A stretch of DNA of 64,000 nucleotides from an uncultured Gammaproteobacteria bacterium (GTDB taxonomy: Bacteria; Patescibacteriota; Microgenomatia; UBA8517): contig CAZTVZ010000003.1 in NCBI GenBank assembly GCA_964617045.1, positions 32,257 through 96,256 on the forward strand, in the 5' to 3' direction. Both the position numbers and the translations under genes were made by a program. This document shows positions 23,039-46,498 of this stretch, in pieces (position 1 is the stretch's first letter; each line of letters starts with the position of its first letter). The notes below the pieces were generated by a model. The model ran no database searches, was not told the DNA's origin, and saw only the letters and a program-made list of their open reading frames with translations.

Positions 23039-23088
23039 TTAGCACTAATTTAGCAAGAGTGATAGCACTTGTCAAGAGGGAGTGCTAT
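23039..23088 (-). promoter_or_regulatory. hrcA-operon promoter (TTGACA-17-TAAATT) flanked by two CIRCE-like inverted repeats
   Basis: On the minus strand the -35 is at 23070-23075, overlapping the murJ stop, and the -10 at 23047-23052. CIRCE-like element 1 is ATAGCACTC-N9-AAGTGCTAT (23062-23088). Element 2 is CTATCACTC-N9-TAGTGCTAA (23039-23065). Both are compared with the consensus TTAGCACTC-N9-GAGTGCTAA. The ATG lies about 14 nt after the -10. Confidence 0.65.
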
Positions 23089-24799
23089 CCGTTGGAGAAG
23101 GTGTCAGTGTTTCGGTTTCTCTTTCTGGAATTGCTCCGACTTTTTTCTTGGCAATTCTTTTTAATAAACTTGCGAAATATATTAGTTCTCTCGACTTGAG
23201 AAGCATCGAAATACCAACATAAATTACCCCCCCCACCAAAATAACCATTATCGTAAGTATCAACAAATTGACCGTATATCTTGTGTCAAGAACAAATTTC
23301 TCGAAAGGTATCTGATTGCTCGCATCAATCTTGTTCATAAAAGACAACTGCTTAATCCAGACCGATCGATCGAAAAACTTTAGAAAAAAATACATTGTAA
23401 AACCGGATACTAACGAAGCAAAGAAAGATTTAGCAAAAGGAATAAATGTTCTTATCCCCTCTCCGTCTCCAATTTTCTTTTCCAAAAGAACAAACAATGT
23501 AATGGTTTGCAGAGAAGCGGCAAAAGAAAACGCCGCAGCCAATGCCCATACGGGTAATCCAAAATATTTAATCAAAATTAAATCCAAAATAATATTGATA
23601 GAAAGGGTAATCAGAGATACCGCAACGGGAGTCCTTGTATCGTGAAGGGCATAAAAACTTCTCGCTAAAACAGAGTTCGCGGCTTGGAAAAATACCCCAA
23701 AAGCAAAAGCAGACACAACCATTCCCGTTTGAACGGTCGATTCCCAACTGAAAATATCGGTGCCGAAAATAAGTCTTACAATCGGAATTCTTAAAACAAT
23801 GAGGACCGTAGCGATCGGCATTATTAAGAACGCTATTTGATACAGTGCACCAAAAAGCGTTCTTTTAAATTGGGTTCTGTCATCCGACTGCCTGGCCAAC
23901 GTAGGAAGAGCAGCTTTTGCGATCGATGTTCCAAATAAACCCACCGGAAGAAGTTGCACTGTATTCCCAAACGTAAAGAATGTATAAGAAGCAGTCGAAA
24001 TAATCGATGCTAAAGAGAGCTCGACCGATTTGGCAATCTGCAAAAATGACACCTCGATTATTCTGGGGAGTGCAAGCTTGCCGATCTTTTTAACATCTTC
24101 CGTAATTCTAATAATCGGTTTTATTCTGAATCCAAGTTTAATCGCGAGGGGAAGTTGAACGGCAAAATGGCAAAATGCTCCGAAGGCAACACCGATTGTC
24201 GGACCCATCAGTCCCATTGTCGGTGATAATACAACTGTTCCTAGTATTATCCCCAGGTTGTAAAAAAGTGGGGCTATAGCCGGAACAATAAATCTTCTTG
24301 AAGATTCCAAAACCGCGGTAAGAACATAACTTATTACAAAAAATCCTTGTGCGGCAAACAATATTCTGGTTAAAGATACTATTGTGTCACGGTCTGCTCC
24401 GGTAAAGCCTGGGGCAAGAATTCCATACAAATGTCCGGAGAAAAACGCGATTACCAACGCCATGACCACAAAAATAATCAATCCGATATTGGCAATTGTT
24501 CCCGCGATTTCCCAAGCATCTTTAGATCCTTTTTTTAAAGATTTGGTAAAAACAGGGATAAAAGCAGAAGCAAAAGTACCGAATACCAAAACCTCAAAAA
24601 TTAAATCGGGTAATCTAAAGGCTGCGAAAAAGAGAGATAGCTCGTTTGGTTCGAAAAAGTGCGCCAGAGCTCTTTGTCTGACAAGTCCAAGCACCCTTGA
24701 GGCAATCGTCATAAACATAATGATCGTTGCCGCGGAAAGGACAGAGCTTTGAGGGGAAGAAAATATCTTTTTCCCTTTGTTGATAATGTCGTTCACCAT
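23072..24799 (-). CDS. murJ: lipid II flippase MurJ (MviN)
   Basis: 575 aa and polytopic. The N-terminal sequence SAATIIMFMTIASRVLGLVRQRALAHFF...AFRLPDLIFEVLVFG is the MurJ signature. Confidence 0.85.
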   Translation of the reverse strand: MVNDIINKGKKIFSSPQSSVLSAATIIMFMTIASRVLGLVRQRALAHFFEPNELSLFFAAFRLPDLIFEVLVFGTFASAFIPVFTKSLKKGSKDAWEIAGTIANIGLIIFVVMALVIAFFSGHLYGILAPGFTGADRDTIVSLTRILFAAQGFFVISYVLTAVLESSRRFIVPAIAPLFYNLGIILGTVVLSPTMGLMGPTIGVAFGAFCHFAVQLPLAIKLGFRIKPIIRITEDVKKIGKLALPRIIEVSFLQIAKSVELSLASIISTASYTFFTFGNTVQLLPVGLFGTSIAKAALPTLARQSDDRTQFKRTLFGALYQIAFLIMPIATVLIVLRIPIVRLIFGTDIFSWESTVQTGMVVSAFAFGVFFQAANSVLARSFYALHDTRTPVAVSLITLSINIILDLILIKYFGLPVWALAAAFSFAASLQTITLFVLLEKKIGDGEGIRTFIPFAKSFFASLVSGFTMYFFLKFFDRSVWIKQLSFMNKIDASNQIPFEKFVLDTRYTVNLLILTIMVILVGGVIYVGISMLLKSRELIYFASLLKRIAKKKVGAIPERETETLTPSPTDSTPS

Positions 24800-25188: not shown

Positions 25189-25752
25189 ATGGCTGCCCAA
25201 AAAGGCTCAAAACTGATAAATCTTCTACCGCAAGAGGAATTTGCCAATTCCACAATTGGTCGTGTGTTTACGTGGGCAATGAGTACCTTCAGAATTATCG
25301 TTATTGGTATGGAGATGGTCGTCATGGTTGCTTTTCTTTCTCGTTTCTGGTTGGATGCCAGAAATGTTGATTTAAACGACATAATCAAACAAAGATCGGC
25401 TGTGATTGCCGCCCAATCCGATTTTGAAAAAGAATTTAGAGATCTTCAAAAAAGAGTTAAGGTTTTTTCCGGAATAACCGGTGTGGAAAAACTTCCTTCC
25501 GAACAAATTACAATTATTACTTCTTATATACCAAACGATGTCCGACTTGAGGCAATTAACCAGTCGGGTGAAAATTTTCAAATCAGAGGAAATTCTTTTA
25601 ACGAAATATCTATAAGCCAATTTATTGTTAACCTTGAAAAAAGCGGAAATTATGACAAGGTTCAGGTTTCAACACTCGATTCGGATCAAGAAGAGGGCGG
25701 ACTGTTTACATTTACTTTGAGTTTATCCCCCAAGAAAGGAGCATCTAAATAA
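25189..25752 (+). CDS. pilN: PilN-like type IV pilus assembly protein
   Basis: The conserved N-terminal INLLP motif (KLINLLPQEEF) is followed by a single TM and a periplasmic-type domain. Length is 187 aa. Confidence 0.6.
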   Translation: MAAQKGSKLINLLPQEEFANSTIGRVFTWAMSTFRIIVIGMEMVVMVAFLSRFWLDARNVDLNDIIKQRSAVIAAQSDFEKEFRDLQKRVKVFSGITGVEKLPSEQITIITSYIPNDVRLEAINQSGENFQIRGNSFNEISISQFIVNLEKSGNYDKVQVSTLDSDQEEGGLFTFTLSLSPKKGASK

Positions 25753-26406
25753 ATGGCACTCGGCTGGAGAAAAGATTACCTAAGATATCGTGAGCAATTT
25801 CTTAACGTTGTAAAACTTTACCAAAAAAGACAGGACTTAAGAATCTATCTTGAAGTAATTTTGTCTTTACTGACAATTATCTTTTTTGCTTTCTTTGCCT
25901 TAAGACCAACCATTCTGACAATATCTCAACTCTACAAAGACATTCAGGCAAAGGAGGAAGTTGTGCAAAAACTGGAAGAAAAAATAAACAATCTCGAATT
26001 GGCACAAGAATTGGTTGCCGAAAAACAAACAGTAATCGAAATTGCCCGACTGTCTGTTCCTGGCGAACCAACACCGGAAAGTTTTGCCAGACAAATTGAA
26101 GGACTATCACAAACAACAGGTATTACTCTATCGGGAATCTCGGTTGGAGAAGTAACAATACTCGGTGAAGCAAGAAAAACCGCTCAGGATAAAGATTTAA
26201 AACCTCTGCCCGAAGGCTCAATGGGAATGCCATTTACGATCAGTATATCGGGAGAATACGGAAATCTGTTTAATTTCCTCAGAAATTTGGAAAACCTGAG
26301 AAGGCCTGCTTCTATTGATAATATTTCCATTTCATCAACGATAAACGATGAGGGTATTGTAAAAATAACAATGATCGTATCGGGAAGGGTACCTTTTCTC
26401 AAATGA
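25753..26406 (+). CDS. pilO: PilO-like type IV pilus assembly protein
   Basis: Starts 1 nt after pilN. It has an N-terminal TM, a coiled-coil (QAKEEVVQKLEEKINNLELAQELVAEKQ), and a C-terminal ferredoxin-like region. Length is 217 aa. Confidence 0.5.
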   Translation: MALGWRKDYLRYREQFLNVVKLYQKRQDLRIYLEVILSLLTIIFFAFFALRPTILTISQLYKDIQAKEEVVQKLEEKINNLELAQELVAEKQTVIEIARLSVPGEPTPESFARQIEGLSQTTGITLSGISVGEVTILGEARKTAQDKDLKPLPEGSMGMPFTISISGEYGNLFNFLRNLENLRRPASIDNISISSTINDEGIVKITMIVSGRVPFLK

Positions 26407-26744
26407 AAAAATTTAAACCGCCAAGCTTTATCACAATATTAATTCTTACTGCAATTACCGTTGTCTTCTGGATATTTTTTGGTGTCGTAAGAATATTTAC
26501 AAAAGCCGATGAGGAAACTGTACCTGCAGCAATTCTTGCACCGCTATCCCCAACACTTGACAAGGATGTTCTGGATAAACTTCCTTCAAGGGTATATTTT
26601 GATGATAGTCAGATTTCAACAAATGTTGTTAGTTCACCCACACCGACGCCTTCAATCCAAATTCCCACTCCGACAGAAATTCTCGAAGCAACAGAGTCTG
26701 CAACACCAACGGCAACAGAAGGAGCAGTTATAGATGAAGAATAA
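26403..26744 (+). CDS. small bitopic membrane protein with acidic Thr/Pro-rich ectodomain (hypothetical)
   Basis: 113 aa. A TM (FITILILTAITVVFWIFFGVV) is followed by PTPTPSIQIPTPTE. It overlaps pilO by 4 nt and the next gene by 11 nt. Confidence 0.4.
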   Translation: MKKFKPPSFITILILTAITVVFWIFFGVVRIFTKADEETVPAAILAPLSPTLDKDVLDKLPSRVYFDDSQISTNVVSSPTPTPSIQIPTPTEILEATESATPTATEGAVIDEE

Positions 26745-28092
26745 GATTCCAACATTGATTGGTTTAGTAGTTCTTATATTTGGTTTAGCCGCCGGTGTTT
26801 TCCTTGTGCAAAACACAACAATTTTCAGATTGGGAGCTTCAGGAGAAAATGCACCTGAAAATGTAAGAATAACCAATATCTCGGATGTATCATTTACAGT
26901 CAGTTGGACAACATCAAAAGAAACCACGGGATTTATCAAATACGGAGAATCCGACAACTTGGGTAAAACCAAAAATGACGAACTTTCCGAAAAAGGATAT
27001 ACACATTACGCGACGATAAGCGGAGTAAAATCCGAATCTAATTACTATTTCAAAATAAATTCGGAGGGAGTCGATTATGACAACAATGGTGTTCCTTGGG
27101 AATTGACTACTGGACCCAATATACCCACAAACACCAGCCAAACGACCATCTCCGGAACGATACTCGAACAAACAGGTAATCCATCAAAAAATGCAATTGT
27201 ATACGTGACCATTGCAGGAAGCTCCCCTCTCTCGTCAACAACGTCTCAAAACGGATCATGGGTAATTCCGCTAAATTTTGCCAGAACACAGGACTTGTCT
27301 GCGTTTATCTTGATACAAGAATCTTCATCATTACTTGAAATATCCGTTAATGCTGGACCGAAAGGAATTGCTTCCGCACAAATATTTCCTCAATCGGCGA
27401 AACCGGTTCCTGCAATTACTCTTGGAACAACAAACGATTTTAGAAGCAACCCCCCGAGCTCTGTCGACGGAATACCTCAAGCTAACTTAACTATTCCAGA
27501 AATAACAGAGAAGAAATCCGGTTTTAATGTTGATGCCACAGTGGCGTCAAACGATAATAAAACGGTTACTTTAGAAAGCGTTGCAGACGGAGAAAAAATT
27601 TCAAGTGAAAAGCCCGAATTTTTCGGAAGTGGACCTTCTGGTACAACTATTACCATTACTGTTGAAAGCGATCCTCAAAGCGGTGAGGTAAAAGTCAACA
27701 ATTCCGGTGATTGGAATTGGACACCACCGGCAGGATTAGAACCCGGAACTCACACCGTTACAATTACATGGCGTGATGCTGCGGGGATATTAAGAAAACT
27801 TACAAGATCTTTTGTTGTTGAGGCATCAGAAAATCCATCTTTTACCGCGACCCCTTCTGCAACAACAACGGTAACACCAACTGCAACAAAAACACCTACA
27901 CCATCTTTAACACCAACTTCTTCGCCAACACCAACAGCATCTGTTTCAGCAACAAAAACACCTACACCATCTGCAGCACCTACAACACCCGAATCGGGCA
28001 GCTTGACCCCAACAATAATTCTATTTATGATGGGTATAGCGATCATTTTGTTCGCAACTGTTGCTTGGAAGAAATCTGAAATAAATGCCTGA
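26734..28092 (+). CDS. cell-surface protein: N-terminal TM anchor, FN3-like + Ig-like domains, Thr/Pro-rich linker, C-terminal sorting-signal-like TM tail
   Basis: Shows an FN3/purple-acid-phosphatase-N-like motif (VSFTVSWTT...TGFIKYGES...HYATISGVKSESNYYFKI). A long Thr/Pro linker (TATPSATTTVTPTATKTPTPSLTPTSSPTPTASVSATKTPTPS) is followed by TPESGSLTPTIILFMMGIAIILFATVAWKKSEINA. Confidence 0.6.
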   Translation: MKNKIPTLIGLVVLIFGLAAGVFLVQNTTIFRLGASGENAPENVRITNISDVSFTVSWTTSKETTGFIKYGESDNLGKTKNDELSEKGYTHYATISGVKSESNYYFKINSEGVDYDNNGVPWELTTGPNIPTNTSQTTISGTILEQTGNPSKNAIVYVTIAGSSPLSSTTSQNGSWVIPLNFARTQDLSAFILIQESSSLLEISVNAGPKGIASAQIFPQSAKPVPAITLGTTNDFRSNPPSSVDGIPQANLTIPEITEKKSGFNVDATVASNDNKTVTLESVADGEKISSEKPEFFGSGPSGTTITITVESDPQSGEVKVNNSGDWNWTPPAGLEPGTHTVTITWRDAAGILRKLTRSFVVEASENPSFTATPSATTTVTPTATKTPTPSLTPTSSPTPTASVSATKTPTPSAAPTTPESGSLTPTIILFMMGIAIILFATVAWKKSEINA

Positions 28093-29590
28093 CCAAAATC
28101 AAACTGACCCAAATGCTAATCCCATAGAACCTGTTTCCCCTCAGGCTCCCCCCCTACCAATGCCAGAAGAAATTCCCCCAATTACACCGGTTGTTGAAGA
28201 AGCAACACCGAATACCGAACCCATAAAAGAGAATGCCCTGTCCGAAGAAAATGTCCAACCGGCTTTTATGGCAACAGATTCTCCCCCTCCCCCTCCAATC
28301 CTTGAAACTGAAAACCCGACAAGAGAAGAAGTTGAAGGAAAAAGGGAAGATGATAATATGCCTGTTCCTGAAAAACCGAAAAAGAAATCTAAAGGTTTGG
28401 TTATTGGGCTTGTTGCAACTCTTCTTTTGATTGCAGGCTTGGGAGCAGGTGTTGTTTTGGTCAGACAACAACAGGACGTCAGGGAAAAAGCAGTCAGTTG
28501 TGGAGGAGCAGGTGCAACATGCCGCTTAAACGGCGATTGTTGTTCCGGAAAATGTAATTTAACCGGATATTCCGGAACTTGTGCAGCCCCAACAGGAACT
28601 CAAACACAATGTGTAAGCTCTGGAGGTGCCTGCACTTCAACTTCCCAATGTTGTGGAAATTTAAGCTGTAAGGGTGGAAAGTGTTTAACCGAAGAAGCAA
28701 GCACTCCCACTAAAACACCTACTGCAGCCGCGTGTATTGCCATAGGTCAAAGGTGTGCATCGGGAGAAACATGTTGTAATAACGGGAAATGTATTGACAA
28801 CAAGTGTTCACTATCTGGAACCAGTACACCGACTGCTCAACCCAACTGTTCCAAGGAGGGAGAGTTCTGTGGAATTGGAAGTGCAAACACAGGTCCGGTA
28901 AATTGTTGTAGCGGATTAAAATGTGACAATGGATATTCCATAGTCCACGCTACAGGATCAACCGGAAAATGTATAAAGGATGCTCCAAGCTGTGTACCTT
29001 TAGGGAAAAGGTGTGCATCAGGAGAAACATGTTGTAATAACGGGGTATGTTCCAATAATGTATGTGTCGCAACCACCCCTCCTCCGACCACAACCTTGTG
29101 TCCCAAATCATGTGTTGCGTCACCTAAATCAAATTGTAAACCCGGCACTTTCTATCCCAACGAAAGTACAAGCTTGGCTTATGGAGATTGTGGAGGAACA
29201 GGATTCAATGAATATTGTTGCGATCCTATTGACGGGGCACCAACAAAAATTCCGACATCAACAACAACTTCTACTCCCAAACCACCATCGGGTGATTACT
29301 GCCAATGTTTAAATGTTGTCGCATATGACACAAACTGGAACCTGCTAACAACAGATGCGTTGAAAAATCTTAAAGCTGGAGACAAAATAAGGTTCACGGT
29401 AAAAGGGCGGGCTTCAAGCGGAAAGTTCGATAAAGCAAAGTTTAAGATAAATGGACAGGAAACTGCCGAAATGACAACAAAGAAGCCAAACACCGAAGAG
29501 TTCTATTACGAATATACAATTCCTGCAAATGTATATTCATTTAAGATTGACGCCAAAATACATCATGATCAGAAAGGATGGTCAAACTAA
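28085..29590 (+). CDS. membrane-anchored secreted protein with five tandem 6-Cys knottin/hevein-like modules
   Basis: A Pro-rich N-terminal tail precedes a TM (LVIGLVATLLLIAGLGAGVVLV). Five modules follow, each C-x6-C-x5(11)-CC-x3-4-C-x4-15-C (for example CGGAGATCRLNGDCCSGKC...C and CIAIGQRCASGETCCNNGKCIDNKC). A C-terminal ~110-aa beta-rich domain ends the protein. There is no C-terminal TM. Confidence 0.6.
   Translation: MPDQNQTDPNANPIEPVSPQAPPLPMPEEIPPITPVVEEATPNTEPIKENALSEENVQPAFMATDSPPPPPILETENPTREEVEGKREDDNMPVPEKPKKKSKGLVIGLVATLLLIAGLGAGVVLVRQQQDVREKAVSCGGAGATCRLNGDCCSGKCNLTGYSGTCAAPTGTQTQCVSSGGACTSTSQCCGNLSCKGGKCLTEEASTPTKTPTAAACIAIGQRCASGETCCNNGKCIDNKCSLSGTSTPTAQPNCSKEGEFCGIGSANTGPVNCCSGLKCDNGYSIVHATGSTGKCIKDAPSCVPLGKRCASGETCCNNGVCSNNVCVATTPPPTTTLCPKSCVASPKSNCKPGTFYPNESTSLAYGDCGGTGFNEYCCDPIDGAPTKIPTSTTTSTPKPPSGDYCQCLNVVAYDTNWNLLTTDALKNLKAGDKIRFTVKGRASSGKFDKAKFKINGQETAEMTTKKPNTEEFYYEYTIPANVYSFKIDAKIHHDQKGWSN
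28750..29044 (+). repeat. internal 36-nt near-identical duplication (28750-28785 and 29009-29044) inside the Cys-module gene
   Basis: aggtgtgcatcgggagaaacatgttgtaataacggg differs from aggtgtgcatcaggagaaacatgttgtaataacggg at a single position. Both encode RCASGETCCNNG in modules 3 and 5. Confidence 0.8.
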
Positions 29591-29592
29591 TT

Positions 29593-30144
29593 ATGAAAAA
29601 TAAAGCCGTATCAATAATAATTTTGGTAATAACTTTACTTTTGGCGGGAGTTGCGATATTCACCGCTGTCAGATTGTACCAACTTAGACAAGAGTCTGTG
29701 GCTCCAACTGCACCAGAAAGTGAACCTGCTGCTGCTGCACCCGAATCATGTAGCTCGCTCTCCTTTACGATTGGTGAACCAACCGGAACACCGACAAACA
29801 CAATTACAACTACGCCAATTGTTAAAGATTGTGCACAGTCGTGTGCAGCCAGTAGTGAATGTAAATCCGGACTTATTTGTTCCAACGGATCATGCAGAAA
29901 TCCTTCTTGTACATCCGAAACAGATTGTGTCTGTCCAACAGCAACAACCACAACAACTTCAACACCTACCGCGACATCGACTGTAACCTCAACAGTAACG
30001 ACAACTGCAACTTCGACATCGACTGTAACCTCAACAATTACGCCAACGGCAACTCTACCAGATGCAGGCATTCCTGCTCCGACAGTATTCGGAATTAGTT
30101 TCGGTGTCCTACTCCTTATTATTGCCGTTGCTCTCGCGCTTTAA
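29593..30144 (+). CDS. small Cys-rich surface protein with Thr-rich linker and LPDAG + C-terminal TM sorting-signal-like tail
   Basis: Has a signal-anchor (MKNKAVSIIILVITLLLAGVAIFTAV) and an 8-Cys module (CAQSCAASSECKSGLICSNGSCRNPSCTSETDCVC). A poly-Thr linker is followed by TLPDAGIPAPTVFGISFGVLLLIIAVALAL. An alternative start at 29578 is possible. Confidence 0.5.
   Translation: MKNKAVSIIILVITLLLAGVAIFTAVRLYQLRQESVAPTAPESEPAAAAPESCSSLSFTIGEPTGTPTNTITTTPIVKDCAQSCAASSECKSGLICSNGSCRNPSCTSETDCVCPTATTTTTSTPTATSTVTSTVTTTATSTSTVTSTITPTATLPDAGIPAPTVFGISFGVLLLIIAVALAL
29930..30060 (+). repeat. low-complexity Thr/Ser codon repeat (linker-coding), including a direct 21-nt repeat acatcgactgtaacctcaaca x2
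   Basis: ACN/TCN-rich. Similar linker-coding tracts occur at about 27850-27990 and about 30740-30900. Confidence 0.7.
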
Positions 30145-30192
30145 TTGTTGATAAAATTTTTTCATAGGGCAAAATGTATTAAGGCTTAATCT

Positions 30193-30981
30193 ATGTTCGA
30201 TCAAAACCAACAAAATCAAATTCCTTTCACCCCACCACCGGTCCCTCAGGGAGAACCGGTTCCTCCACAACCAATGGACATGCCACCCATGCCTCAAATG
30301 GGTATCGCAACTCCTCCTCCCGGAGAAAAGAAAGCCGCCAGCGGAAAAATAATTGCAACCGTGTTTGCAATTTTCATCCTTGTCGGTGGACTTGCGGCAG
30401 GATTGATTCTTGTAAGAAGAAATCAAGACTTAAGAGAGCAAGCAGAAACAACCTGTGTTGAAGAATGCCCGGGTGTCGATTCCGGTGGAAGAAGCGTTTT
30501 AAGAAACTGTACACCGCCAGAAGCCGACGGCACTTCTGACGATCAAATCTGTAACTTGGCTGGCAGAACAGGACAGTGTGGAGGACAACAATATTGTTGT
30601 CCGGCAGCAGGAGGGGTTTGGACAACAAATATGACAGCGTGTACGCCCAAGGAATCTGTGTGCAACGATTCCATAGACAATGACAATGATGGATTAACCG
30701 ATTGTACCGACTCTGATTGTTCGACTTCGACATATTGCCAAGCAACACCTACCGAAACACCTTCCATTACATCGACGCCGTCGGCAACAACAACGATAAG
30801 CCCAACTTCAACCGCAACTTCGACGGCAACAATAACAGCAACAAAAACACCGACTTTGACATCAACTGCAACAGCAACTGTCAGCCCACCCATTCCAGAT
30901 TCAGGTCTTCCACTTCCAACCGTGATAGCATTTGGTTTTGGGGCACTACTTGTAATAATCTCCTTGGTACTTGTCCTTTAA
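30193..30981 (+). CDS. Cys-rich surface protein: Pro-rich N-tail, TM, hevein/knottin-like and TSP3-like Ca-binding Cys motifs, Thr linker, IPDSG + C-terminal TM tail
   Basis: The N-terminus is PFTPPPVPQGEPVPPQPMDMPPMPQ, with a TM (IIATVFAIFILVGGLAAGLILV). It contains CNLAGRTGQCGGQQYCC (C-x8-C-x5-CC) and CNDSIDNDNDGLTDCTDSDC (DxDxDGxxDxxD). It ends PPIPDSGLPLPTVIAFGFGALLVIISLVLVL. Confidence 0.5.
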   Translation: MFDQNQQNQIPFTPPPVPQGEPVPPQPMDMPPMPQMGIATPPPGEKKAASGKIIATVFAIFILVGGLAAGLILVRRNQDLREQAETTCVEECPGVDSGGRSVLRNCTPPEADGTSDDQICNLAGRTGQCGGQQYCCPAAGGVWTTNMTACTPKESVCNDSIDNDNDGLTDCTDSDCSTSTYCQATPTETPSITSTPSATTTISPTSTATSTATITATKTPTLTSTATATVSPPIPDSGLPLPTVIAFGFGALLVIISLVLVL

Positions 30982-31008: not shown

Positions 31009-33042
31009 ATGGATTATCTGAGCATTTTATATTGGTGGATATTTTTATTTTTACTGGGGCTTATAAACTACCCTTTTTCGTTCATTCTTCTGAGGAAAAA
31101 CTCCGATCGCGGTTACGGATTATCCAAAATTATATCTCTTCTTCTGATTAGCTACATCCTTCTTTTGGGTTCTTCGCTCAAGTTGTTTCCTTTTACGATA
31201 TATTCTTCCCTTTCCGCGTTGCTTCTTCTTGTTTTTGTTAACACACTAATCTTTCTAAAAAATAAAAGGGAAATTATTCGTGACACAAAACTAACTATTC
31301 GATTAATTATCTTTCAGGAAATATTATTTTCCTCCGCATTACTCTTTTGGTCTTTTATTAAAATGCACAACCCTGACATTCGAAGCTTGGAAAAATTTAT
31401 GGATTACGGGTTTATAAACTCGATCTTAAAAAGCCCTTGGCAACCTGCTCAGGACATGTGGTTTGCCGGAGGAAAAATAAATTATTATTATTTCGGACAT
31501 TTCTATACTGCAGTTGCCACAAGATTGTCTTTTCTGCCCAGCTCAATTACTTACAACCTCATGCTGTCCACAATTTTAGGGTTTTTAGTTAACGGAGCCT
31601 ATTCTCTGGTGCACACGATTTTTTCATCTCTCCCTAAAGGGATCAACAAAAAAGCGGTTTCTGCAGGGATAATTTCATTTCTGCTTGTATCTTTCGCGGG
31701 AAATTTCCATACGCCGATATATGCCTTTCAAAAAGGAATCGATAAATATTGGTATCCGGATGCGACAAGATTCATCGGTTATAATCCCGACACCAACGAC
31801 AAAACAATACATGAATTTCCCCTCTACTCTTTCGTCGTGTCTGATCTGCATGCCCACTTATTGGGAATTCCAATCGTAATTCTTTATTTGAGTTTCCTGT
31901 TCATGATTTTCGGCTCTTCCGAAAATATAACATTTCGAAAACGCATCCCGTTCTTGCTGTTCCCAGGATTTTTATTCGGGCTTATGTTTATGACCAACAC
32001 CTGGGATTTTGCCTCATATATGCTAATCACCGGAGTTTGCCTCGTTATGTCACGGATATCTCTATTTAAAGATATTGGCAATATTTCTCAAGCCGTCTAT
32101 GACATTTCTTTAAACATTATTATTCTTCTTGTTATTGGCTTGATTACTGCGCTTCCGTTTATCCTTAATTTCGAATCAATTGCGGAGGGTGTGCAATTTG
32201 TAACTTCACGCTCCCCGGTTTGGCAATTGTTAATCTTATGGGGACTTCCGATACTACTTCTTGTTTTCTTTTCGGCTTTTATTATCGCAAAAAAGAAAGC
32301 CGAAAAATCAGATCTCTTTATTTTGGGACTATTGGTATCCTCTATTCTTCTCATTATCATCCCTGAAATCATATACGTAAAAGACATTTATATTGCATCT
32401 CATTACAGGGCCAATACTATGTTTAAAATTACCTATCAAGCATTTGTAATAGGTTATCTTTCGAGTGGATATGTTGCATTAAGAATAATCACTGGAATAA
32501 AAAATATTCCGTTTCGTATATTGTCCACAACGGTTTTTACTTTGCTATTTTCTGCAATGCTGACGTATCCGTTTTTTGCAGTAAATTCATATTTCGACAA
32601 ACTGGAAAACAAAACTGGCTTAAATGGAGAAACTTGGATTAAAAACACCTATCCCTCAACATATCGTGCTATTGAATATTTAAGGAATACCGTTTCCGAA
32701 CAAAAAATAATTACTGAAGCATCTGGAAACAGCTATACGGACTACAACGTAATTTCCAGCTATACTGGCCTTCCAACAATACAAGGGTGGTTTGTCCACG
32801 AGTGGTTATGGAGAGGAAGTGCAGAATTGCCCTCAGAAAGAGTCTCTGATCTGGAGATTCTATACACATCGAAAAATATTAACGAAGTAAAAAAGATAAT
32901 AGAAAAATATAAAGTTAACTACTTAATATACGGTTTTTTTGAAAAAGAAAAATATCCCAACAACAACGAACTATTAATAGACAGTCTCGGAGAAATAGTA
33001 TTTACCGATGGTGATACTACTATTTATTCAGTTGATTATTAA
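31009..33042 (+). CDS. DUF2298 / 'YYY'-domain polytopic membrane protein (GT-C-type putative glycosyltransferase)
   Basis: 677 aa with more than 12 predicted TMs. The signature Tyr triplet GGKINYYYFGHFYTAV is present. A C-terminal soluble domain follows. Confidence 0.65.
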   Translation: MDYLSILYWWIFLFLLGLINYPFSFILLRKNSDRGYGLSKIISLLLISYILLLGSSLKLFPFTIYSSLSALLLLVFVNTLIFLKNKREIIRDTKLTIRLIIFQEILFSSALLFWSFIKMHNPDIRSLEKFMDYGFINSILKSPWQPAQDMWFAGGKINYYYFGHFYTAVATRLSFLPSSITYNLMLSTILGFLVNGAYSLVHTIFSSLPKGINKKAVSAGIISFLLVSFAGNFHTPIYAFQKGIDKYWYPDATRFIGYNPDTNDKTIHEFPLYSFVVSDLHAHLLGIPIVILYLSFLFMIFGSSENITFRKRIPFLLFPGFLFGLMFMTNTWDFASYMLITGVCLVMSRISLFKDIGNISQAVYDISLNIIILLVIGLITALPFILNFESIAEGVQFVTSRSPVWQLLILWGLPILLLVFFSAFIIAKKKAEKSDLFILGLLVSSILLIIIPEIIYVKDIYIASHYRANTMFKITYQAFVIGYLSSGYVALRIITGIKNIPFRILSTTVFTLLFSAMLTYPFFAVNSYFDKLENKTGLNGETWIKNTYPSTYRAIEYLRNTVSEQKIITEASGNSYTDYNVISSYTGLPTIQGWFVHEWLWRGSAELPSERVSDLEILYTSKNINEVKKIIEKYKVNYLIYGFFEKEKYPNNNELLIDSLGEIVFTDGDTTIYSVDY

Positions 33043-34045
33043 CCCACGATCTTAAATCTTCCCAAGATCCGGAAGCAGGTATAAAAACATATTGATGATC
33101 ATACTTAGAACTAATAGGAGGATTAAAAAGATATTCTTCCGGAATATTATGTTGTCTAATATCATTTCTTGCGTTAACAACAAGTTTTCCTAACACCCCC
33201 AGTGAACCAAATTTGAGATCTGTTTCAATATATTTTTCTGCCACCCTCCATGATTCATACAATTTCACCGGATTTAAAAGAATTTGGTAAGTAAGCATTT
33301 TGTCTTTGATCGAATTTATTACTTTTTGTTGTCTTGCCGAACGAGCCAAGTCAGTTCCTTCATCCCCCTGTGCGTTTCTTGATCTCACAAATTTCAGAGC
33401 AGTATCGCCATTCATTTTCTGGATTCCTTTTTCAAAAACAATCGTTTCGTATCTGCATTTCAATTCTTTGTCGCCGTCACAAAGATCATTCTCTTTACCC
33501 TTGATGGGATACTTCGGATCTGTAAATGCATTTTCCACATCAACATCTATTCCGCCGATCACATCAACTATTTCCGTAAATCCGTCGAAATCAATAACAA
33601 TCCCGTAGTTTATCTTTTCTTGTAACAATTCAGAGGCAATATCTTTTGCAAAGGATAATCCTGTTGTTTCATCTTTTTGCTTTCCCCAATAATAGGCACT
33701 GTTTATTTTCGCTCTAATGGATGGGATCCAAACATCCCTGGGAATAGAAATTGTATCAATCTTGGATTTTTCGGAAGAAATACTTACAAGCATTATGGAA
33801 TCGGTCAAGTCAGATCCATCGTGTCCTGCTCCTGATTTTCCGAGAACCAACAAGTTAACCCTTCCTTCCTGGTTTTCGATTTTTGTCAAATCGGTATTAA
33901 CATAATCCATAGCCAGGGAGAAAAACTTTCCAAAATCCATTTTTGCTAAGAAGAAGTAAAGAAACATAAAGAGTGATATGACAAATAACAAAAACAGCCC
34001 GATTCTTATAGCTTTTCGTGAAGGTATTTTAGATTCTTTTTCCAT
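33020..34045 (-). CDS. LytR-CpsA-Psr (LCP) family cell-wall glycopolymer ligase
   Basis: After an N-terminal TM comes the LCP core VNLLVLGKSGAGHDGSDLTDSIMLVSIS...IPRD. The C-terminal region is extended. It converges on the YYY gene and overlaps it. Confidence 0.85.
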   Translation of the reverse strand: MEKESKIPSRKAIRIGLFLLFVISLFMFLYFFLAKMDFGKFFSLAMDYVNTDLTKIENQEGRVNLLVLGKSGAGHDGSDLTDSIMLVSISSEKSKIDTISIPRDVWIPSIRAKINSAYYWGKQKDETTGLSFAKDIASELLQEKINYGIVIDFDGFTEIVDVIGGIDVDVENAFTDPKYPIKGKENDLCDGDKELKCRYETIVFEKGIQKMNGDTALKFVRSRNAQGDEGTDLARSARQQKVINSIKDKMLTYQILLNPVKLYESWRVAEKYIETDLKFGSLGVLGKLVVNARNDIRQHNIPEEYLFNPPISSKYDHQYVFIPASGSWEDLRSWVNNQLNK

Positions 34046-34090: not shown

Positions 34091-35929
34091 ATGACTAACA
34101 AGCTCCTAACAGATTTAAACAAAGAACAAAACGAGGCTGTCTCCTATTTAGGAACTCCCCTCCTTGTTTTGGCCGGTGCCGGAAGCGGTAAAACAAGGGT
34201 ACTTACTTACAGGGTTGCTTATCTTATTTCAGAGGGAGTTGCCAAATCCGAAAACATTCTTCTTCTTACTTTTACCAACAAGGCTGCAGGCGAGATGAAA
34301 GAAAGATGCGTAGATCTTATTGGAGAGGTTCCTTTCTTTGCTGGGACCTTCCATTCATTTTGTGCCAAGGTGTTAAGACAGGACGGAAGTGTAATAGGAA
34401 TTCCAAAGGGCTTTTTGATTTATGACACCCAAGACCAAAAGGACGCAATCAAAGATATACTCGAAAAGTTTAATCTCTCTTCTGACTCTTATAACCCAAA
34501 CGGTATTTTGTCTGCAATAAGCGATGCCAAGAATCAAATGTTGACACCTCTTCAATATGCAGAATACGCCCAGGGTGAATGGCAGGAACAAATATTCAAA
34601 ATCTGGCTGGAGTACGATAAATACCTAAAAGAAGTCGGGGCACTTGATTTTGACGACCTTATTATGAAAACGATGGAACTCTTCAAATACTACCCCGAAA
34701 TTCTTAAAAGATGGCAGGAAAAAATTAAATTTACTTTCGTTGACGAATGGCAAGATACAAATAAAGTTCAATACAATTTAATCAAACTAATTGTCGGTGA
34801 CAGGGGCAGTCTCACAGTAGTCGGTGATGCTTCACAATCGATTTACAGCTGGAGAGGGGCAGATTATCGCAATATCACCTATCTAATGAAAGACTATCCG
34901 AAAATTAAAATCGTCAACCTGGAACAAAACTACAGATCGACACAAAACATCTTAACTGCCGCAAACGCGGTAATTTCCAAAAACACTTCTCATCCGATTC
35001 TAAAGTTGTGGACCAGTAATGCCGTTGGAGAAAGGCTAAAACTCTATACCGCAAGAAACGGAATGGATGAGGCAGAATACGTTGTTAACGAAATAAAAGG
35101 TTTAAATATGTGGGGATATTCGCTCAAAGACATTGCGGTGCTATACAGAACAAATGCCCAATCCCGTGTTCTGGAAGAAGCCCTTCTCCACTCCGGAATA
35201 CCTTATATCCTTGTTGGGGGTACAAGATTCTATGAAAGAAAAGAAATTAAAGACGTTCTCTGTTACCTAAGACTGATTGCCAATCCACGAGATTCCGTTT
35301 CCAAAAAAAGATCTCTTAAACTAGGTAAAAGGAGATTGGAAAGATTTGAGGAATATAAAAAAGAGCTTGTTGATCCGGCTTCATACGCAACTTTGGATTT
35401 AATGGATGGTGTTCTTGCCAAAACAAAGTACTTGGATTTGTTTGAAAAAGAAACCGAAGAAAACTTGGCAAGACTGGAAAACATTAAAGAATTAAGATCG
35501 GTTGCGTCTCAATTTCCGGACATAAACGATTTTTTGGAAAATGTAGCCTTGGTTGAAGCCGAACAGGAAGCCACGATTAAAAACCAGGACAAGTCGGAAA
35601 AAGTTACCTTAATGACACTTCACTCCGCAAAGGGTCTTGAGTTCCCCGTTGTGTTTATCGTTGGTATGGAAGAGGGCATCTTTCCCCATTCTCGCTCCCT
35701 TAACGACAAATCTCAACTTGAAGAAGAACGAAGGTTGGCTTACGTCGGAATTACGAGAGCCAAAGAACTTTTATATCTTTCCTATGCCGCAAGGAGGTTA
35801 TTTTTCGGAGAACAACTCAGCAATCCACCCTCCAGATTTATCATTGAGATACCCGAGAATTTACTCCAGGGGGTCGGAACAAGTAGAATATTAGATAGTT
35901 ACAAAGACGACATAGACTTGGATATATGA
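34091..35929 (+). CDS. ATP-dependent DNA helicase, UvrD/PcrA family (short)
   Basis: Shows LLVLAGAGSGKTRVLTYRVAYLI (motif I), DEWQDTN (II), GDASQSIYSWRGA (III), LEQNYRST (IV), and HSAKGLEFPVVF/YVGITRAK (V/VI). Confidence 0.9.
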   Translation: MTNKLLTDLNKEQNEAVSYLGTPLLVLAGAGSGKTRVLTYRVAYLISEGVAKSENILLLTFTNKAAGEMKERCVDLIGEVPFFAGTFHSFCAKVLRQDGSVIGIPKGFLIYDTQDQKDAIKDILEKFNLSSDSYNPNGILSAISDAKNQMLTPLQYAEYAQGEWQEQIFKIWLEYDKYLKEVGALDFDDLIMKTMELFKYYPEILKRWQEKIKFTFVDEWQDTNKVQYNLIKLIVGDRGSLTVVGDASQSIYSWRGADYRNITYLMKDYPKIKIVNLEQNYRSTQNILTAANAVISKNTSHPILKLWTSNAVGERLKLYTARNGMDEAEYVVNEIKGLNMWGYSLKDIAVLYRTNAQSRVLEEALLHSGIPYILVGGTRFYERKEIKDVLCYLRLIANPRDSVSKKRSLKLGKRRLERFEEYKKELVDPASYATLDLMDGVLAKTKYLDLFEKETEENLARLENIKELRSVASQFPDINDFLENVALVEAEQEATIKNQDKSEKVTLMTLHSAKGLEFPVVFIVGMEEGIFPHSRSLNDKSQLEEERRLAYVGITRAKELLYLSYAARRLFFGEQLSNPPSRFIIEIPENLLQGVGTSRILDSYKDDIDLDI

Positions 35930-36927
35930 TCAGACTGGCAAACGAAAACGATAAAGGTGATTTCAATAAAGTATCTACCCATCCCCTGCAATCATGGGAG
36001 TGGGGAAACTTTCGAAGCAAATGGGGAAATAAAATTGTTAGACTCGTTGAAGAGAAAAACGGAAAAATAACAAAGGCGCTCCAGATAATTTTCTCAGTCA
36101 TTCCGCATACCACTTACACCGTAGGAACTGTTATTAAGGGGCCTGAATTGTCGCAGGAATTAATCGACAAGGTAAAGTCTATAGCCCGAGAATATAATGC
36201 AATATTTATAAAATTTGAACCCAACTTAAAGAAAAACGATAAACAAATAGAAATTTACAAGAAAAATTCTTTCGTTAAAGGTAAAAGGCTGTTTACTCCA
36301 ACTACTTTCGAAATAGATCTTACAAAATCCGAAGATGAACTATTGAAAGGTTTTTCCCAAAAAACCAGATATAACATTCGGTTGGCACAACGTTACGGGG
36401 TAATAGTAAAAGAAGACTCTTCGCAAAAAGCTTTTAACAAATATCTCGAACTTACAAAAGAGACAGTTTCCAGGCAAGGATTCTATGCACATACGCAGAA
36501 ATATCACAAGCTCATGTGGGAAGAACTAAACTCCGGTAAAAACAAAATTGCCCATTTACTAACAGCCAATTACAAAGGGGAGATTATCACCACGTGGATT
36601 CTTTTTGCTTGGAACAATTGTCTATATTATCCTTACGGAGCTTCAACAGAAAAATTCAAAAACGTAATGGCCAACAACTTAATGATGTGGGAGGCAATTA
36701 AGTATGGTAAAAAATTACATTTGAAAACGTTTGATCTTTGGGGAAGAGAAGAGGGAAAGGGTTTTACCAAGTTTAAAGAAGGATATAATCCGCAGGTTGT
36801 TGAGTTCTCCGGATCATGGGATATGCCGACATCTAATCTGTATAATTTTTACAACATCCTCGATGGGCTAAGATGGATCGTCTTAAAACTCAGGTCCAGA
36901 GTGTTGAAGATAAAACCATCTTTTTAA
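35926..36927 (+). CDS. FemAB-family peptidoglycan interpeptide-bridge aminoacyltransferase (FemX-like)
   Basis: 333 aa. QKTRYNIRLAQRYGV is the FemAB signature region. The length and secondary-structure pattern are consistent with tRNA-dependent lipid II aminoacyltransferases. Confidence 0.65.
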   Translation: MIRLANENDKGDFNKVSTHPLQSWEWGNFRSKWGNKIVRLVEEKNGKITKALQIIFSVIPHTTYTVGTVIKGPELSQELIDKVKSIAREYNAIFIKFEPNLKKNDKQIEIYKKNSFVKGKRLFTPTTFEIDLTKSEDELLKGFSQKTRYNIRLAQRYGVIVKEDSSQKAFNKYLELTKETVSRQGFYAHTQKYHKLMWEELNSGKNKIAHLLTANYKGEIITTWILFAWNNCLYYPYGASTEKFKNVMANNLMMWEAIKYGKKLHLKTFDLWGREEGKGFTKFKEGYNPQVVEFSGSWDMPTSNLYNFYNILDGLRWIVLKLRSRVLKIKPSF

Positions 36928-43062: not shown

Positions 43063-44553
43063 ATGAAAAATTTTATCGTTAAACATGACAGGTTTTTTCA
43101 AAGATTGCTGGAAATTCTTCCCGGCTTTTTTTCTTGGAATGTAATACTTTTCCCTTACTGGGGTATTTTCGTAATACCGGACGTTGTCGCCTACTTCGTT
43201 CTTCTCTATAACATTTACTGGTTTTATCAGTCGGTCCAAATAGCAGGATCGGCAATTATTTCCCATCTTAGGATTCAGGCTTCAATGAATTACGATTGGA
43301 TAGGAGATTTAAAAAATTTTCCAGATTACAAGAAGGTTCACCATGTAGTAATTATTCCAACCTACAAAGAGCCTCTGCACATCTTGCAAAGAACTCTTAA
43401 TTCACTTGCCGGACAGACACTGTCAACAAAACAGATTACTGCAGTTCTGGCAATGGAAAAGAAAGAACCGGAAGAGGACAGACTTGCAAAAGTAAAGGTT
43501 TTGAAAAAAGAGTTCGGTAAAGTCTTTGCAAACCTAATTATTACGGTACACGAATTACAGGTCGGAGAAGTTGTTGGTAAAGCATCAAACGAAAGATACG
43601 CTGCTATTGAAGTAAAAAAACAACTAGTCGACAAGGAGGGTATGAATATCGACTACATGACGGTTACATCCTGTGATGCAGACCACAAATACCATCCTCA
43701 ACATTTTGCAGTACTTACCTATCGATTCCTTGATAATCCAAACAGATATAAATTCTTCTGGCAACCGGCAGTCATGTTTTACAACAATATCTGGGAGCTT
43801 CCGGCGATAACAAGAGTTCCCAATACTTTTGGTTCTATATGGAACTTATCTCAACTTCCTCGAAAAGACAGATTGATAAATGCTCAGAACTATTCTTTGT
43901 CGTTCAAGCTTCTTGATAGAGTTGGATATTGGGATGCAAGCATTATCCCTGAAGACTGGAACATATTTTTCAAAGCTTTTTATAAAGCAGGAGGAGGAAT
44001 AGAAGTCGAACCGATTTATCTTCCCTTGCATGCAGACGCAGCTCAATCAACATCTTTCTGGAAAACAGTTAAGAATCAGTATGAACAATTTAAACGATGG
44101 GCTTGGGGCGTATCCGACGATCCCTGGATAATCAAAAATTATTTGTCCACACCCGAAATTCCATTTTGGGATAAAACAATGAGACTTCTTACAGCACTGT
44201 GGGCACATTTCTTGTGGCCTGTAAACTGGTTCATCATCACCTTGGGTATTACAATTCCCACCCTCCTTAATCCTGCATTTGGAAGAACAACATTGGGCTA
44301 TACGGTTCCCAAGTTGTCATCCTTTATCCTAACCGTAGCTTTAGCTTTCCTTGTTGTCACTCTGATAATCGACTATATCTACAAGCCGAAAAGACCGCAG
44401 GGATTCCCTTTGTGGAGAGCGATTCTTGTGCCTTTTGAATTTGTATTGATGCCCATCGCCGGATTTTTCTTTTCGGCTCTTCCCGGTCTTGATGCTCACA
44501 CAAGACTTATGCTTGGAAAATACATTGAATACAAAGTTACTGAAAAAGTATAA
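43063..44553 (+). CDS. processive family-2 glycosyltransferase (membrane-embedded, cellulose/hyaluronan-synthase-like)
   Basis: Shows VVIIPTYKEP, SCDADH (a DxD-like motif) and QYEQFKRWAWG (QxxRW). There are N-terminal TMs and a C-terminal TM bundle. Confidence 0.75.
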   Translation: MKNFIVKHDRFFQRLLEILPGFFSWNVILFPYWGIFVIPDVVAYFVLLYNIYWFYQSVQIAGSAIISHLRIQASMNYDWIGDLKNFPDYKKVHHVVIIPTYKEPLHILQRTLNSLAGQTLSTKQITAVLAMEKKEPEEDRLAKVKVLKKEFGKVFANLIITVHELQVGEVVGKASNERYAAIEVKKQLVDKEGMNIDYMTVTSCDADHKYHPQHFAVLTYRFLDNPNRYKFFWQPAVMFYNNIWELPAITRVPNTFGSIWNLSQLPRKDRLINAQNYSLSFKLLDRVGYWDASIIPEDWNIFFKAFYKAGGGIEVEPIYLPLHADAAQSTSFWKTVKNQYEQFKRWAWGVSDDPWIIKNYLSTPEIPFWDKTMRLLTALWAHFLWPVNWFIITLGITIPTLLNPAFGRTTLGYTVPKLSSFILTVALAFLVVTLIIDYIYKPKRPQGFPLWRAILVPFEFVLMPIAGFFFSALPGLDAHTRLMLGKYIEYKVTEKV

Positions 44554-44596
44554 TTTATATTTTCCTCACAACTAAGTTATACTAATTAAGAATCCC

Positions 44597-46099: not shown

Positions 46100-46136
46100 T
46101 TGTCAGTCGAACTCACTTAGAGTAAAATTACGCAAG

Positions 46137-46496: not shown

Positions 46497-46498
46497 AC

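Follow-up and report, generated by a model that had tools for sequence, protein, structure and literature searches.

A 64-kb stretch of contig CAZTVZ010000003.1 (the window, by which we mean the whole stretch of DNA analysed) carries a gene for a polytopic membrane protein of the DUF2298/chlor_Arch_YYY family, here called YYY, directly downstream of five genes for surface proteins with Thr/Pro linkers. We found that the predicted fold of YYY matches that of GT-C glycosyltransferases (GTs), that its invariant charged residues lie at the outer face of the cytoplasmic membrane, and that in related genomes YYY keeps company with a glycosylation cassette. We consider it likely, from sequence and modelling, that YYY is an outer-face GT-C glycosyltransferase with a role in a multi-gene module. 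It would take a sugar from a polyprenyl-phosphate-linked donor at the outer face of the cytoplasmic membrane and pass it to an envelope acceptor, either the Thr/Pro stalks of the linker proteins or a wall glycopolymer.

Family, motif and predicted fold of YYY

The gene and the parts of its product discussed below are as follows.

31009-33042, forward strand: YYY/DUF2298 gene, 677 amino acids (aa), ATG start, 14 predicted transmembrane (TM) helices; N-terminus and C-terminal domain predicted outside
31009-31302, forward strand: N-terminal helices TM1-3 (residues 1-98; helices from the AlphaFold2 model), missing from the paralogue M550
31366-31539, forward strand: first long outer-face loop (residues 120-177), with two short helices, following TM4
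31477-31500, forward strand: I-N-Y-Y-Y-F-G-H motif (residues 157-164)
31699-31851, forward strand: second long outer-face loop (residues 231-281), very conserved (YWYPDATRFIGYNP..DKTIHEFP..DLHAH)
32371-32427, forward strand: outer loop and start of TM13 (residues 455-473), with D459 (conserved in at least 90%) and invariant R467, N469, T470, F472 and K473
32590-33039, forward strand: C-terminal extracytoplasmic alpha/beta domain (residues 528-677), with invariant G593-W594 (GWFVHEWLWRG in bacteria of the Candidate Phyla Radiation, CPR)

Profile searches placed YYY far above the cut-offs of both family models, PF10060 DUF2298 (344 bits, cut-off 27.8, E 1.8e-102) and TIGR03662 chlor_Arch_YYY (477 bits, cut-off 300, E 1.2e-142). 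The initial annotation of this DNA had described a 677-aa polytopic protein with an INYYYFGH motif and had assigned it to this family; the open reading frame (ORF), the motif and the assignment were all borne out. The window belongs to a Candidatus Woesebacteria (Microgenomates, CPR) genome, the name that the top homologues bear. In an alignment of 42 Microgenomates homologues, which also served for the topology and the structural model, N158, Y159, Y160, G163 and H164 are invariant; the third Tyr of the motif is replaced by Trp in most homologues (in this set, and in most Woesebacteria). When CPR, Firmicutes (Lachnospiraceae) and haloarchaea are compared, the motif retains just Y159, Y160 and G163 as invariants. 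A YYYxG motif is the feature named in the TIGRFAM description of chlor_Arch_YYY. The DUF2298/YYY family comprises 6,249 representatives at 50% identity (E ≤ 1e-3), spread over CPR bacteria, Firmicutes, Chloroflexi and haloarchaea. By sequence, the YYY of the window is an ordinary member of this very large uncharacterised family.

The AlphaFold2 model of YYY has a predicted local distance difference test score (pLDDT) of 85.6 and a predicted template modelling score (pTM) of 0.90. Its polytopic domain shows what is expected of a GT-C fold, namely 7-13 or more TM helices in an arrangement that matches solved enzymes. All 19 Foldseek matches in the PDB at E ≤ 1e-3 were GT-C enzymes (AftA, DPY19, STT3/AglB, ArnT), the best whole-chain match being AftA (E 6e-8, TMq 0.49). 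ALG12, ALG3, EmbB and Pmt1/2 came next, and unrelated transporters appeared only at E > 0.07 and probability < 0.15. Profile-profile comparison (hhalign) provides a bridge to the same superfamily: residues 96-676 of YYY align with residues 30-540 of its paralogue M550 (100% probability, E 6e-47), and M550, in turn, with the PMT_2-type GT-Cs encoded nearby (95.6%, E 1e-8). Judging from the modelled fold and this bridge, YYY is almost certainly a member of the GT-C superfamily, the grouping that the initial annotation had also favoured. Membership of individual GT-C families is another matter. No profile match to PMT_2 (PF13231) was found, and for STT3/AglB/PglB (GT66) there was neither a Pfam STT3 match nor an oligosaccharyltransferase (OST) chain in PDB sequence searches.

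Outer-face loops and conserved residues

According to the positive-inside rule, applied to the 42 homologues, the odd-numbered loops of YYY are short, rich in Lys and Arg, and cytoplasmic, and the outer face has all of the long conserved loops as well as the C-terminal domain. The positions E128, D132, D149, R254, E269, D279, H281, H283, E453, R467 and K473 are invariant in all three lineages compared, and the charged and His invariants all fall within or border outer-face loops. Structure prediction thus yielded a GT-C fold, and the loops at its outer face hold conserved acidic residues, as the earlier proposal of a GT-C enzyme had anticipated.

The first long loop, residues 120-177, holds the invariants E128-K-F-x-D132, P146, D149, W151 and Y159-Y160-x-x-G163. 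Since this loop, which comes after TM4, has two short helices, the signature of the first external loop (EL1) of GT-Cs, we regard it as the candidate catalytic loop and EL1 equivalent. It follows the first TM helix only when TM1-3 are counted as an addition. These three helices are probably such an N-terminal addition to the GT-C core, because the alignment with M550 starts at YYY residue 96, i.e. at TM4. The second long loop has R254, I267, E269, P271 and D279-x-H281-x-H283 as invariants. Residues 250-267 have low pLDDT, and because strong conservation coincides here with low model confidence, loop 231-281 is probably a mobile substrate-gating loop. Invariant E453 sits at the end of TM12, just before loop 455-473, the residues of which are candidates for phosphate binding.

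In the full model, the C-terminal domain matches 3vu0 (E 0.03, TMt 0.52). When it was modelled alone, the matches were 3vu0 (E 1.2e-3), 3vgp (E 1.5e-3) and DPY19 (E 6e-3). With both models, the matches at probability ≥ 0.96 were exclusively C-terminal globular domains of short AglB and DPY19. A conserved segment is disordered in the domain-only model, and because this model is mediocre (pLDDT 69.5) the fold matches are suggestive only.

Gene neighbourhood of YYY in the window and in Microgenomates relatives

Upstream of YYY in the window lie PilN-like and PilO-like genes and the linker genes. A convergent gene overlaps its 3' end, and a displaced glycosylation cassette follows further downstream.

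25189-26406, forward strand: PilN-like and PilO-like genes, without linkers, at the head of the same co-directional string
26403-30981, forward strand: five co-directional Thr/Pro-linker surface-protein genes directly upstream of YYY, listed in the next five lines
26403-26744, forward strand: orf113, Thr/Pro linker
26734-28092, forward strand: S452, Thr/Pro linker; fn3, Big and CarboxypepD_reg domains
28085-29590, forward strand: S501, Thr/Pro linker
29578-30144, forward strand: S188, Thr/Pro linker
30193-30981, forward strand: S262, Thr/Pro linker
33020-34045, reverse strand: LytR-CpsA-Psr (LCP) glycopolymer-to-peptidoglycan ligase, convergent with YYY, the 3' end of which it overlaps over 23 nucleotides (nt)
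43063-48477, forward strand: displaced glycosylation cassette of this genome (GT2, GT-C, small membrane protein, GT4, UbiA), listed in the next five lines
43063-44553, forward strand: GT2
44597-46099, forward strand: PMT_2-like GT-C with a 'YYGDETIY' DE motif after the first TM helix
46137-46496, forward strand: small membrane protein
46499-47575, forward strand: WecA/MraY-like GT4
47542-48477, forward strand: UbiA-type polyprenyl-phosphate phosphoribosyltransferase

The GT-C of the displaced cassette scores 22.5 bits with Pfam PMT_2, below the threshold of 26.1, and matches the PMT_2-type family in hhalign at 92% probability (E 5.7e-7). The UbiA protein reaches 214 bits with the NCBIfam equivalog for decaprenyl-phosphate phosphoribosyltransferase (cut-off 207). 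A second GT-C with a DE motif and the genes for a lipid-linked donor (GT4, UbiA) are therefore present downstream, as previously described.

We compared 80 syntenic Microgenomates loci (Woese-, Shapiro-, Blackburn- and Chisholmbacteria). The conserved order is MurJ, PilN, PilO, (orf113), S452, other linker proteins, cassette, YYY, (LCP, convergent), PcrA, FemAB, with PilN/PilO syntenic in 36-39 of the 80 loci. The cassette includes the UbiA phosphoribosyltransferase (30/80 loci), one to three PMT_2-like GT-Cs (46/80), PAP2 (34/80, at position -1 in 33), M550 (18-19/80, at position -1 in 13) and an Amino_oxidase-family FAD protein (16 loci). The LCP gene occurs in 26 of 80 loci, mostly directly downstream of YYY and convergent.

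Distances were counted in the 59 loci with at least 8 kb of upstream sequence. The cassette is present in 57 of them. Cassette and linker genes occur together in 45, and the cassette is the nearer to YYY in every one of these; the cassette stands alone in 12, an arrangement like that of the window was seen once (L004), and one locus has neither. Linker genes lie within 10 kb upstream of YYY in 46 of the 59 loci. Linker ORFs make up 14-33% at positions -3 to -7 versus 0-5% downstream, and a linker gene at position -1 was found in a single one of 77 relatives. In the 12 loci with broken upstream synteny, the cassette is kept in 11 and the linker genes in 4. Because the cassette is always nearer than the linker genes and is retained where synteny breaks, the main partner of YYY, as judged from gene order, is the glycosylation cassette. 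It stands between the sortase-anchored stalk genes and YYY in most relatives, and YYY would be juxtaposed with the linker genes in the window because the cassette was lost or moved 10-15 kb downstream. The adjacency that the initial annotation had taken as a functional clue does not hold up in relatives, given the single linker gene at position -1 and the cassette in between wherever both are present. YYY homologues do co-occur with Thr/Pro-linker proteins, since these are conserved in the same region of Microgenomates genomes; a complete lack of such co-occurrence had been named as grounds for dropping the idea that YYY acts on the linkers.

About 35 of the loci come from records titled 'uncultured Gammaproteobacteria', and L017, L043, L051, L060 and L080 carry Bathyarchaeia, Methanoperedens or Clostridia titles; all have a Microgenomates-type YYY (38-50% identity). 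The Microgenomates block (YYY, PcrA, FemAB) is also found in most of these oddly titled records, L060 and L080 being without it. The titles look mis-binned or mislabelled.

Thr/Pro-linker proteins and the sortase

When the linker criterion was applied to the 55 ORF-level genes of the window, five qualified, all of them contiguous; the chance of this is ~1e-5 (calculated by hand as 51 runs / C(55,5)). Their Thr/Pro/Ser-rich segments span 14-60 residues. The five genes overlap or are at most 48 nt apart, with a gap of 27 nt before YYY, and this layout fits a single transcription unit of linker genes and YYY. Promoter and terminator scans of 24.6-34.3 kb gave sites no more frequent than in shuffled sequence, so these scans are uninformative on operon boundaries. 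YYY had been said to end an operon whose products all carry linkers; the five genes directly upstream do carry them, and PilN and PilO do not.

Three of the linker proteins end in sortase-type tails followed by a TM helix (S452 TPESG, S188 LPDAG, S262 IPDSG). In the related loci, a [LIVTM]Px[ASTV]G signal with a C-terminal TM helix was found in 59 of 90 linker proteins versus 8 of 1082 other ORFs, LPxAG being the commonest form. The likely processing enzyme for such LPxAG-type tails, by sequence, is encoded elsewhere in the window:

1833-2507, reverse strand: sortase gene (PF04203, E 1.3e-21)

Since the Thr/Pro stretch directly precedes the sorting signal, we read it as the wall-spanning stalk of a sortase-anchored protein. 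Such stalks would be a plausible target of O-glycosylation.

Further features of these proteins were noted. The N-termini of S452, S501, S188 and S262 share a TM segment with a similar motif, roughly GLxAGxxLVxxxQxxRxxA; in S501 and S262 this segment comes after long Pro-rich, probably cytoplasmic leaders. It may be a signal for export or anchoring that is particular to the lineage. S501 (28085-29590) and S262 (30193-30981) contain Cys-rich repeat modules (C..G..CC...C), and S262 matches NCBIfam NF033662 'acidic double-disulfide repeat' (E 2.5e-9) under the cut-off of that model. Adjoining the sortase gene is a gene for a 732-aa protein (2520-4718, reverse strand) without a Pfam match, in which a single TM helix near residue 365 divides a cytoplasmic N-terminal part from a large extracellular one. 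This protein was rejected as a linker protein or sortase substrate, having neither an LPxAG tail nor a Thr/Pro linker. A 176-aa Val/Ala-rich ORF (29541-30071, reverse strand), which runs antisense to the last part of S501 and to S188, was discarded as the shadow of Thr-codon repeats and not a gene.

The M550 paralogue and YYY loci outside the CPR

The paralogue M550 is likewise polytopic, has ~550-670 aa and gave no Pfam match. It lacks the first three TM helices of YYY and its EKFxD helix (gap at YYY residues 122-133). Examples are L013:8355-9989, L020:8356-10002, L001:7067-8731, L083:5553-7568, L084:7014-9020 and L085:7035-9011. The M550 gene immediately precedes that of YYY, often with an overlap, both in CPR and in Lachnospiraceae, so that the pair is conserved across phyla. 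In Blautia-type Lachnospiraceae, YYY overlaps an upstream M550 homologue of 660 aa (E 1e-72 to 1e-78), and the pair sits after SpoIIGA, SigE and Amidase_3 (a cell-wall hydrolase). On a Pseudobutyrivibrio xylanivorans plasmid, YYY (31% identity) lies inside a surface-polysaccharide locus with O-antigen-ligase-family, GT2, epimerase and aminotransferase genes. Neither the surroundings of YYY in Lachnospiraceae nor the Pseudobutyrivibrio locus contain linker ORFs, and the sampled haloarchaeal YYY genes likewise have neighbours other than Thr/Pro proteins.

Six haloarchaeal loci were sampled. In three, the neighbours of YYY are GT2 and GtrA (Halanaeroarchaeum), GtrA (Halorhabdus) or a Wzx-type flippase (Halobacterium); in three further genera no relevant neighbours were found. 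The GT2, GtrA and Wzx neighbours outside the CPR point to a lipid-phosphate-sugar donor that would be flipped to the outer face. Such is the scheme of the classic three-component systems, which has lately been widened to pentofuranoses from UbiA-like synthases (PMC11127046). Haloferax volcanii AglS, a dolichyl-phosphate-mannose (Dol-P-Man) mannosyltransferase, was considered as a possible DUF2298 protein, which would have given the family a known function; the literature searched gave no domain assignment for it, and we made no use of the idea. The 120 haloarchaeal relatives among the matches listed carry only DUF2298/YYY names, and the name AglS is absent from them.

Haloarchaeal YYY genes (L086, L087, L089, L091) have a fixed place by DUF7098 and the rpL44e-rpS27e-eIF2alpha cluster, and the slot upstream varies between a Wzx-type flippase, GT2 plus GtrA, and GtrA. 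Amino_oxidase-type FAD genes recur within ~5 kb of haloarchaeal YYY, echoing the CPR cassette. The FAD oxidoreductase was nonetheless rejected as a cross-domain partner of YYY, as tblastn gave no similarity between the haloarchaeal and the CPR protein. In a published gene table of Chloroflexi bacterium 44-23, a DUF2298 gene adjoins PMT2/PA14 and PMT2 genes (PMC8756737, appendix), and YYY and PMT_2-type GT-Cs may thus be paired in Chloroflexi as well.

Donor, acceptor and alternative explanations

We suggest that YYY is the last gene of a conserved envelope-glycosylation module with UbiA, two PMT_2-like GT-Cs, PAP2 and/or M550, and an FAD oxidoreductase. The donor in Microgenomates would most likely be a polyprenyl-phospho-pentofuranose, derived from the product of the linked UbiA-type phosphoribosyltransferase and dephosphorylated by PAP2.

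Several observations weigh against such a role for YYY. Its TM-scores to solved GT-Cs are moderate (0.4-0.5). The direct hhalign comparison with the neighbouring PMT_2-type family is not significant (1.3% probability), and PDB sequence searches with the single sequence and with a profile returned chance matches only, to light-harvesting complex (LHC) proteins and triosephosphate isomerase; because both approaches were null, the placement in the GT-C superfamily rests on the predicted fold and the two-step homology. Near-invariant D33, just past TM1, is predicted to be cytoplasmic, so that the canonical 'Asp after TM1' of GT-Cs must move to the post-TM4 loop. D33 was rejected as the canonical catalytic Asp in view of the positive-inside rule and of M550, which is without TM1-3; it is probably not the catalytic base. 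Neither PAP2 nor M550 is encoded in the 64-kb window. PcrA, an unrelated helicase, is kept in 70 of 80 loci, and because the whole block, PcrA included, keeps its gene order, proximity alone says little on function, and the evidence from neighbourhoods is partly confounded by general synteny. Full-text literature searches found no functional study of DUF2298/YYY, in line with the earlier remark that no function has been demonstrated for these proteins.

The two candidate acceptors, Thr/Pro stalks and a peptidoglycan-linked glycopolymer, appear about equally probable. It is possible, though short of probable, that YYY builds or decorates a wall glycopolymer, as an arabinan-type polymerising or branching GT-C or as a transferase of side chains after polymerisation, and that LCP then attaches the polymer to peptidoglycan. 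The best whole-chain structural match is a mycobacterial arabinofuranosyltransferase, AftA, but it is barely better than the matches to peptide-acceptor GT-Cs, and the C-terminal domain resembles OST and DPY19, not the carbohydrate-binding modules of Emb, AftD or GT136. The set of UbiA, PAP2 and several GT-Cs parallels that of the decaprenyl-phospho-ribose/arabinose pathway and of the three-component pentofuranose systems (PMC11127046), and a cassette with so many GT-Cs recalls the assembly of arabinan. MurJ and FemAB belong to the same block. LCP overlaps YYY in the window and is present in 26/80 relatives; however, it is absent from most Shapirobacteria-type loci that retain YYY, and no wall polysaccharide is known for Microgenomates. 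Outside the CPR, the company of O-antigen-ligase-family, GT2, epimerase and aminotransferase genes in Pseudobutyrivibrio and the position of the Lachnospiraceae M660-YYY pair after an Amidase_3 gene are consistent with this acceptor.

More tentatively, YYY might be a protein O-glycosyltransferase that modifies Thr (and Ser) in the co-encoded Thr/Pro stalks after export, with a lipid-linked sugar. Linker genes are followed by the same-strand cassette and YYY in 45/59 loci and are enriched upstream, but a linker gene at position -1 is confined to 1/77 loci, YYY tracks the cassette and not the linker genes where synteny is broken, and no linker ORFs lie near YYY of Lachnospiraceae or Pseudobutyrivibrio. 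LPxAG-type signals in 59/90 linker proteins imply wall-exposed stalks within reach of an outer-face enzyme; that the linkers are glycosylated is itself an assumption, and as a Thr transferase the PMT_2-like GT-Cs of the cassette are candidates at least as strong as YYY. The C-terminal domain matches AglB and DPY19, both peptide-acting GT-Cs, although at borderline significance (E ~1e-3, model pLDDT 69.5). Precedents are the Streptococcus mutans cnm-pgf operon (PMC5856776) and the arabinosylation of Pseudomonas aeruginosa pilin (cited in PMC11127046). Of the initial proposal that YYY is the O-glycosyltransferase of the linkers, the GT-C fold and the linked donor pathway stand; the adjacency on which it mainly rested is not conserved.

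Very unlikely, in our judgement, is a non-catalytic YYY that serves as a scaffold, a flippase, a carrier-lipid recycling factor or an inactive partner of M550 or the PMT_2-like GT-Cs. YYY and M550 form a conserved paralogous pair, in which one member can be non-catalytic, but it is M550, not YYY, that is without the invariant EKFxD helix, and the YYY genes of the window, of haloarchaea and of Pseudobutyrivibrio have no M550 with them. The role of flippase is vacant, as none was recognised in the CPR cassette; the dense invariant acidic, basic and His residues in the outer loops of YYY, common to three lineages, speak against a non-catalytic role.

A broader extension of the stalk hypothesis, improbable as it stands, is that DUF2298/YYY proteins are the missing protein O-glycosyltransferases of Thr-rich stalks that adjoin C-terminal sorting signals, of the sortase type (LPxAG/LPXTG) in CPR and Firmicutes and of the PGF-CTERM/archaeosortase type in haloarchaea. 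The AglB/DPY19-like domain would hold the peptide, and donors would be lineage-specific, polyprenyl-P-pentofuranose in CPR and dolichyl-P-hexose in haloarchaea. If true, this would explain the scattered spread of the family over Archaea, Chloroflexi, Firmicutes and CPR, and it would identify the archaeal O-glycosylation enzyme, which was still unknown according to a 2018 review (PMC6098224).

Placed in the GT-C superfamily and in one module with PAP2, PMT_2-like GT-Cs, a conserved paralogue and a polyprenyl-phosphoribose synthase, a family with no assigned function acquires an enzymatic hypothesis that can be tested. The module further suggests that Microgenomates, in which the cell surface mediates an episymbiotic way of life, have a glycosylated envelope still to be explored. 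Should the acceptor be the Thr/Pro stalks, this would be a new protein O-glycosylation system, which might answer the archaeal O-glycosylation question; should it be a wall polymer, an arabinogalactan-like, pentofuranose-containing glycopolymer would exist outside Actinobacteria.

Other envelope genes of the window

The window is rich in envelope genes: MurJ, FemAB, YceG, VanW/PG_binding_4/G5, DUF4012 and PEGA+SH3 proteins (23072-24799(-), 35926-36927(+), 258-1247(-), 55486-57351(+), 61590-63977(-), 48474-49394(-)). The PEGA+SH3 protein has short Thr/Pro segments.

Comparison with known glycosylation systems

A UbiA-like synthase, a phosphatase, a flippase and a GT-C make up the established extracytoplasmic pentofuranose route (PMC11127046). 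Representatives are the mycobacterial decaprenyl-phosphoryl-phosphoribose/decaprenyl-phosphoryl-arabinose (DPPR/DPA) pathway, with Rv3806c UbiA, Rv3807c phosphatase and AftA/Emb GT-Cs, and the three-component system of Citrobacter youngae, with a polyprenyl phosphoribose synthase, a flippase and a GT136 GT-C (Kelly et al. 2024, PMC11127046). Like these, the YYY cassette pairs a UbiA phosphoribosyltransferase with a membrane phosphatase, PAP2, and GT-C-fold transferases; the active site of YYY is likewise predicted at the outer face, and AftA is its best structural match. In sequence, by contrast, YYY shows no detectable relation to GT136, AftA or Emb, and it differs from the pentofuranose GT-Cs by three extra N-terminal TM helices, an AglB/DPY19-like C-terminal domain and the lack of a carbohydrate-binding module. 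Recognisable MATE/SMR flippases and DprE1/E2-type epimerases are missing from the CPR cassette, which instead has the Amino_oxidase FAD protein in 16 loci and, unlike the three-component systems, contains up to four GT-C-like proteins. The source also cites O-arabinosylation of P. aeruginosa pilin through an orthologue of DPPR synthase (DPPRS) (PMC11127046).

The Pgf system of S. mutans (the GT2 PgfS, PgfM1/PgfM2 and the epimerase PgfE) modifies the Thr-rich LPXTG adhesins Cnm and WapA, and in cnm-pgfS-pgfM1-pgfE-pgfM2 the Thr-rich LPXTG substrate is co-transcribed with the GT2 and two PMT-like polytopic proteins (PMC5856776). The Microgenomates loci resemble it in that genes for Thr-rich sortase-anchored proteins are followed by glycosylation genes on the same strand, among these are the genes for a pair of polytopic membrane paralogues that have extracellular domains, and glycosylation is proposed to be stepwise and extracytoplasmic. 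However, PgfM1 and PgfM2 are PMT-family-like by the description in that paper, which sets them apart from DUF2298 (PMC5856776). The Pgf donor comes from UDP-hexose via GT2, whereas that of the CPR cassette would come from phosphoribosyl pyrophosphate (PRPP) via UbiA; and Pgf function is backed by genetics, whereas YYY is known from sequence and a model.

With the OSTs (STT3/AglB/PglB, GT66) and DPY19 (GT98), YYY shares the GT-C fold and a conserved yet flexible outer loop, and its C-terminal globular domain is closest to AglB-S1, AglB-S2 and DPY19. Sequence similarity to these enzymes is lacking, and the motifs WWDYG, DK/MI and DXD are not present as such; 'TIHE' resembles TIXE, and 'HEWLW' resembles WWDYG, by eye only. 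YYY has 14 TM helices with the N-terminus predicted outside, against 13 in OST and DPY19. In haloarchaea, YYY holds the GT-C position of the Gtr (GtrA flippase, GtrB GT2, GtrC-type GT-C) and H. volcanii AglD/AglR/AglS systems; this layout, with GT2 plus GtrA, GtrA or a Wzx-type (AglR-like) flippase beside YYY, is limited to 3/6 sampled loci. Overall, the YYY system follows the pattern of a lipid-phosphate-sugar donor with an outer-face GT-C and has a transferase family distinct from GT136, AftA/Emb, PMT and OST. By sequence and model, YYY stands out in that it has three additional helices at the N-terminus, that its C-terminal domain is OST/DPY19-like and that a conserved paralogue accompanies it.

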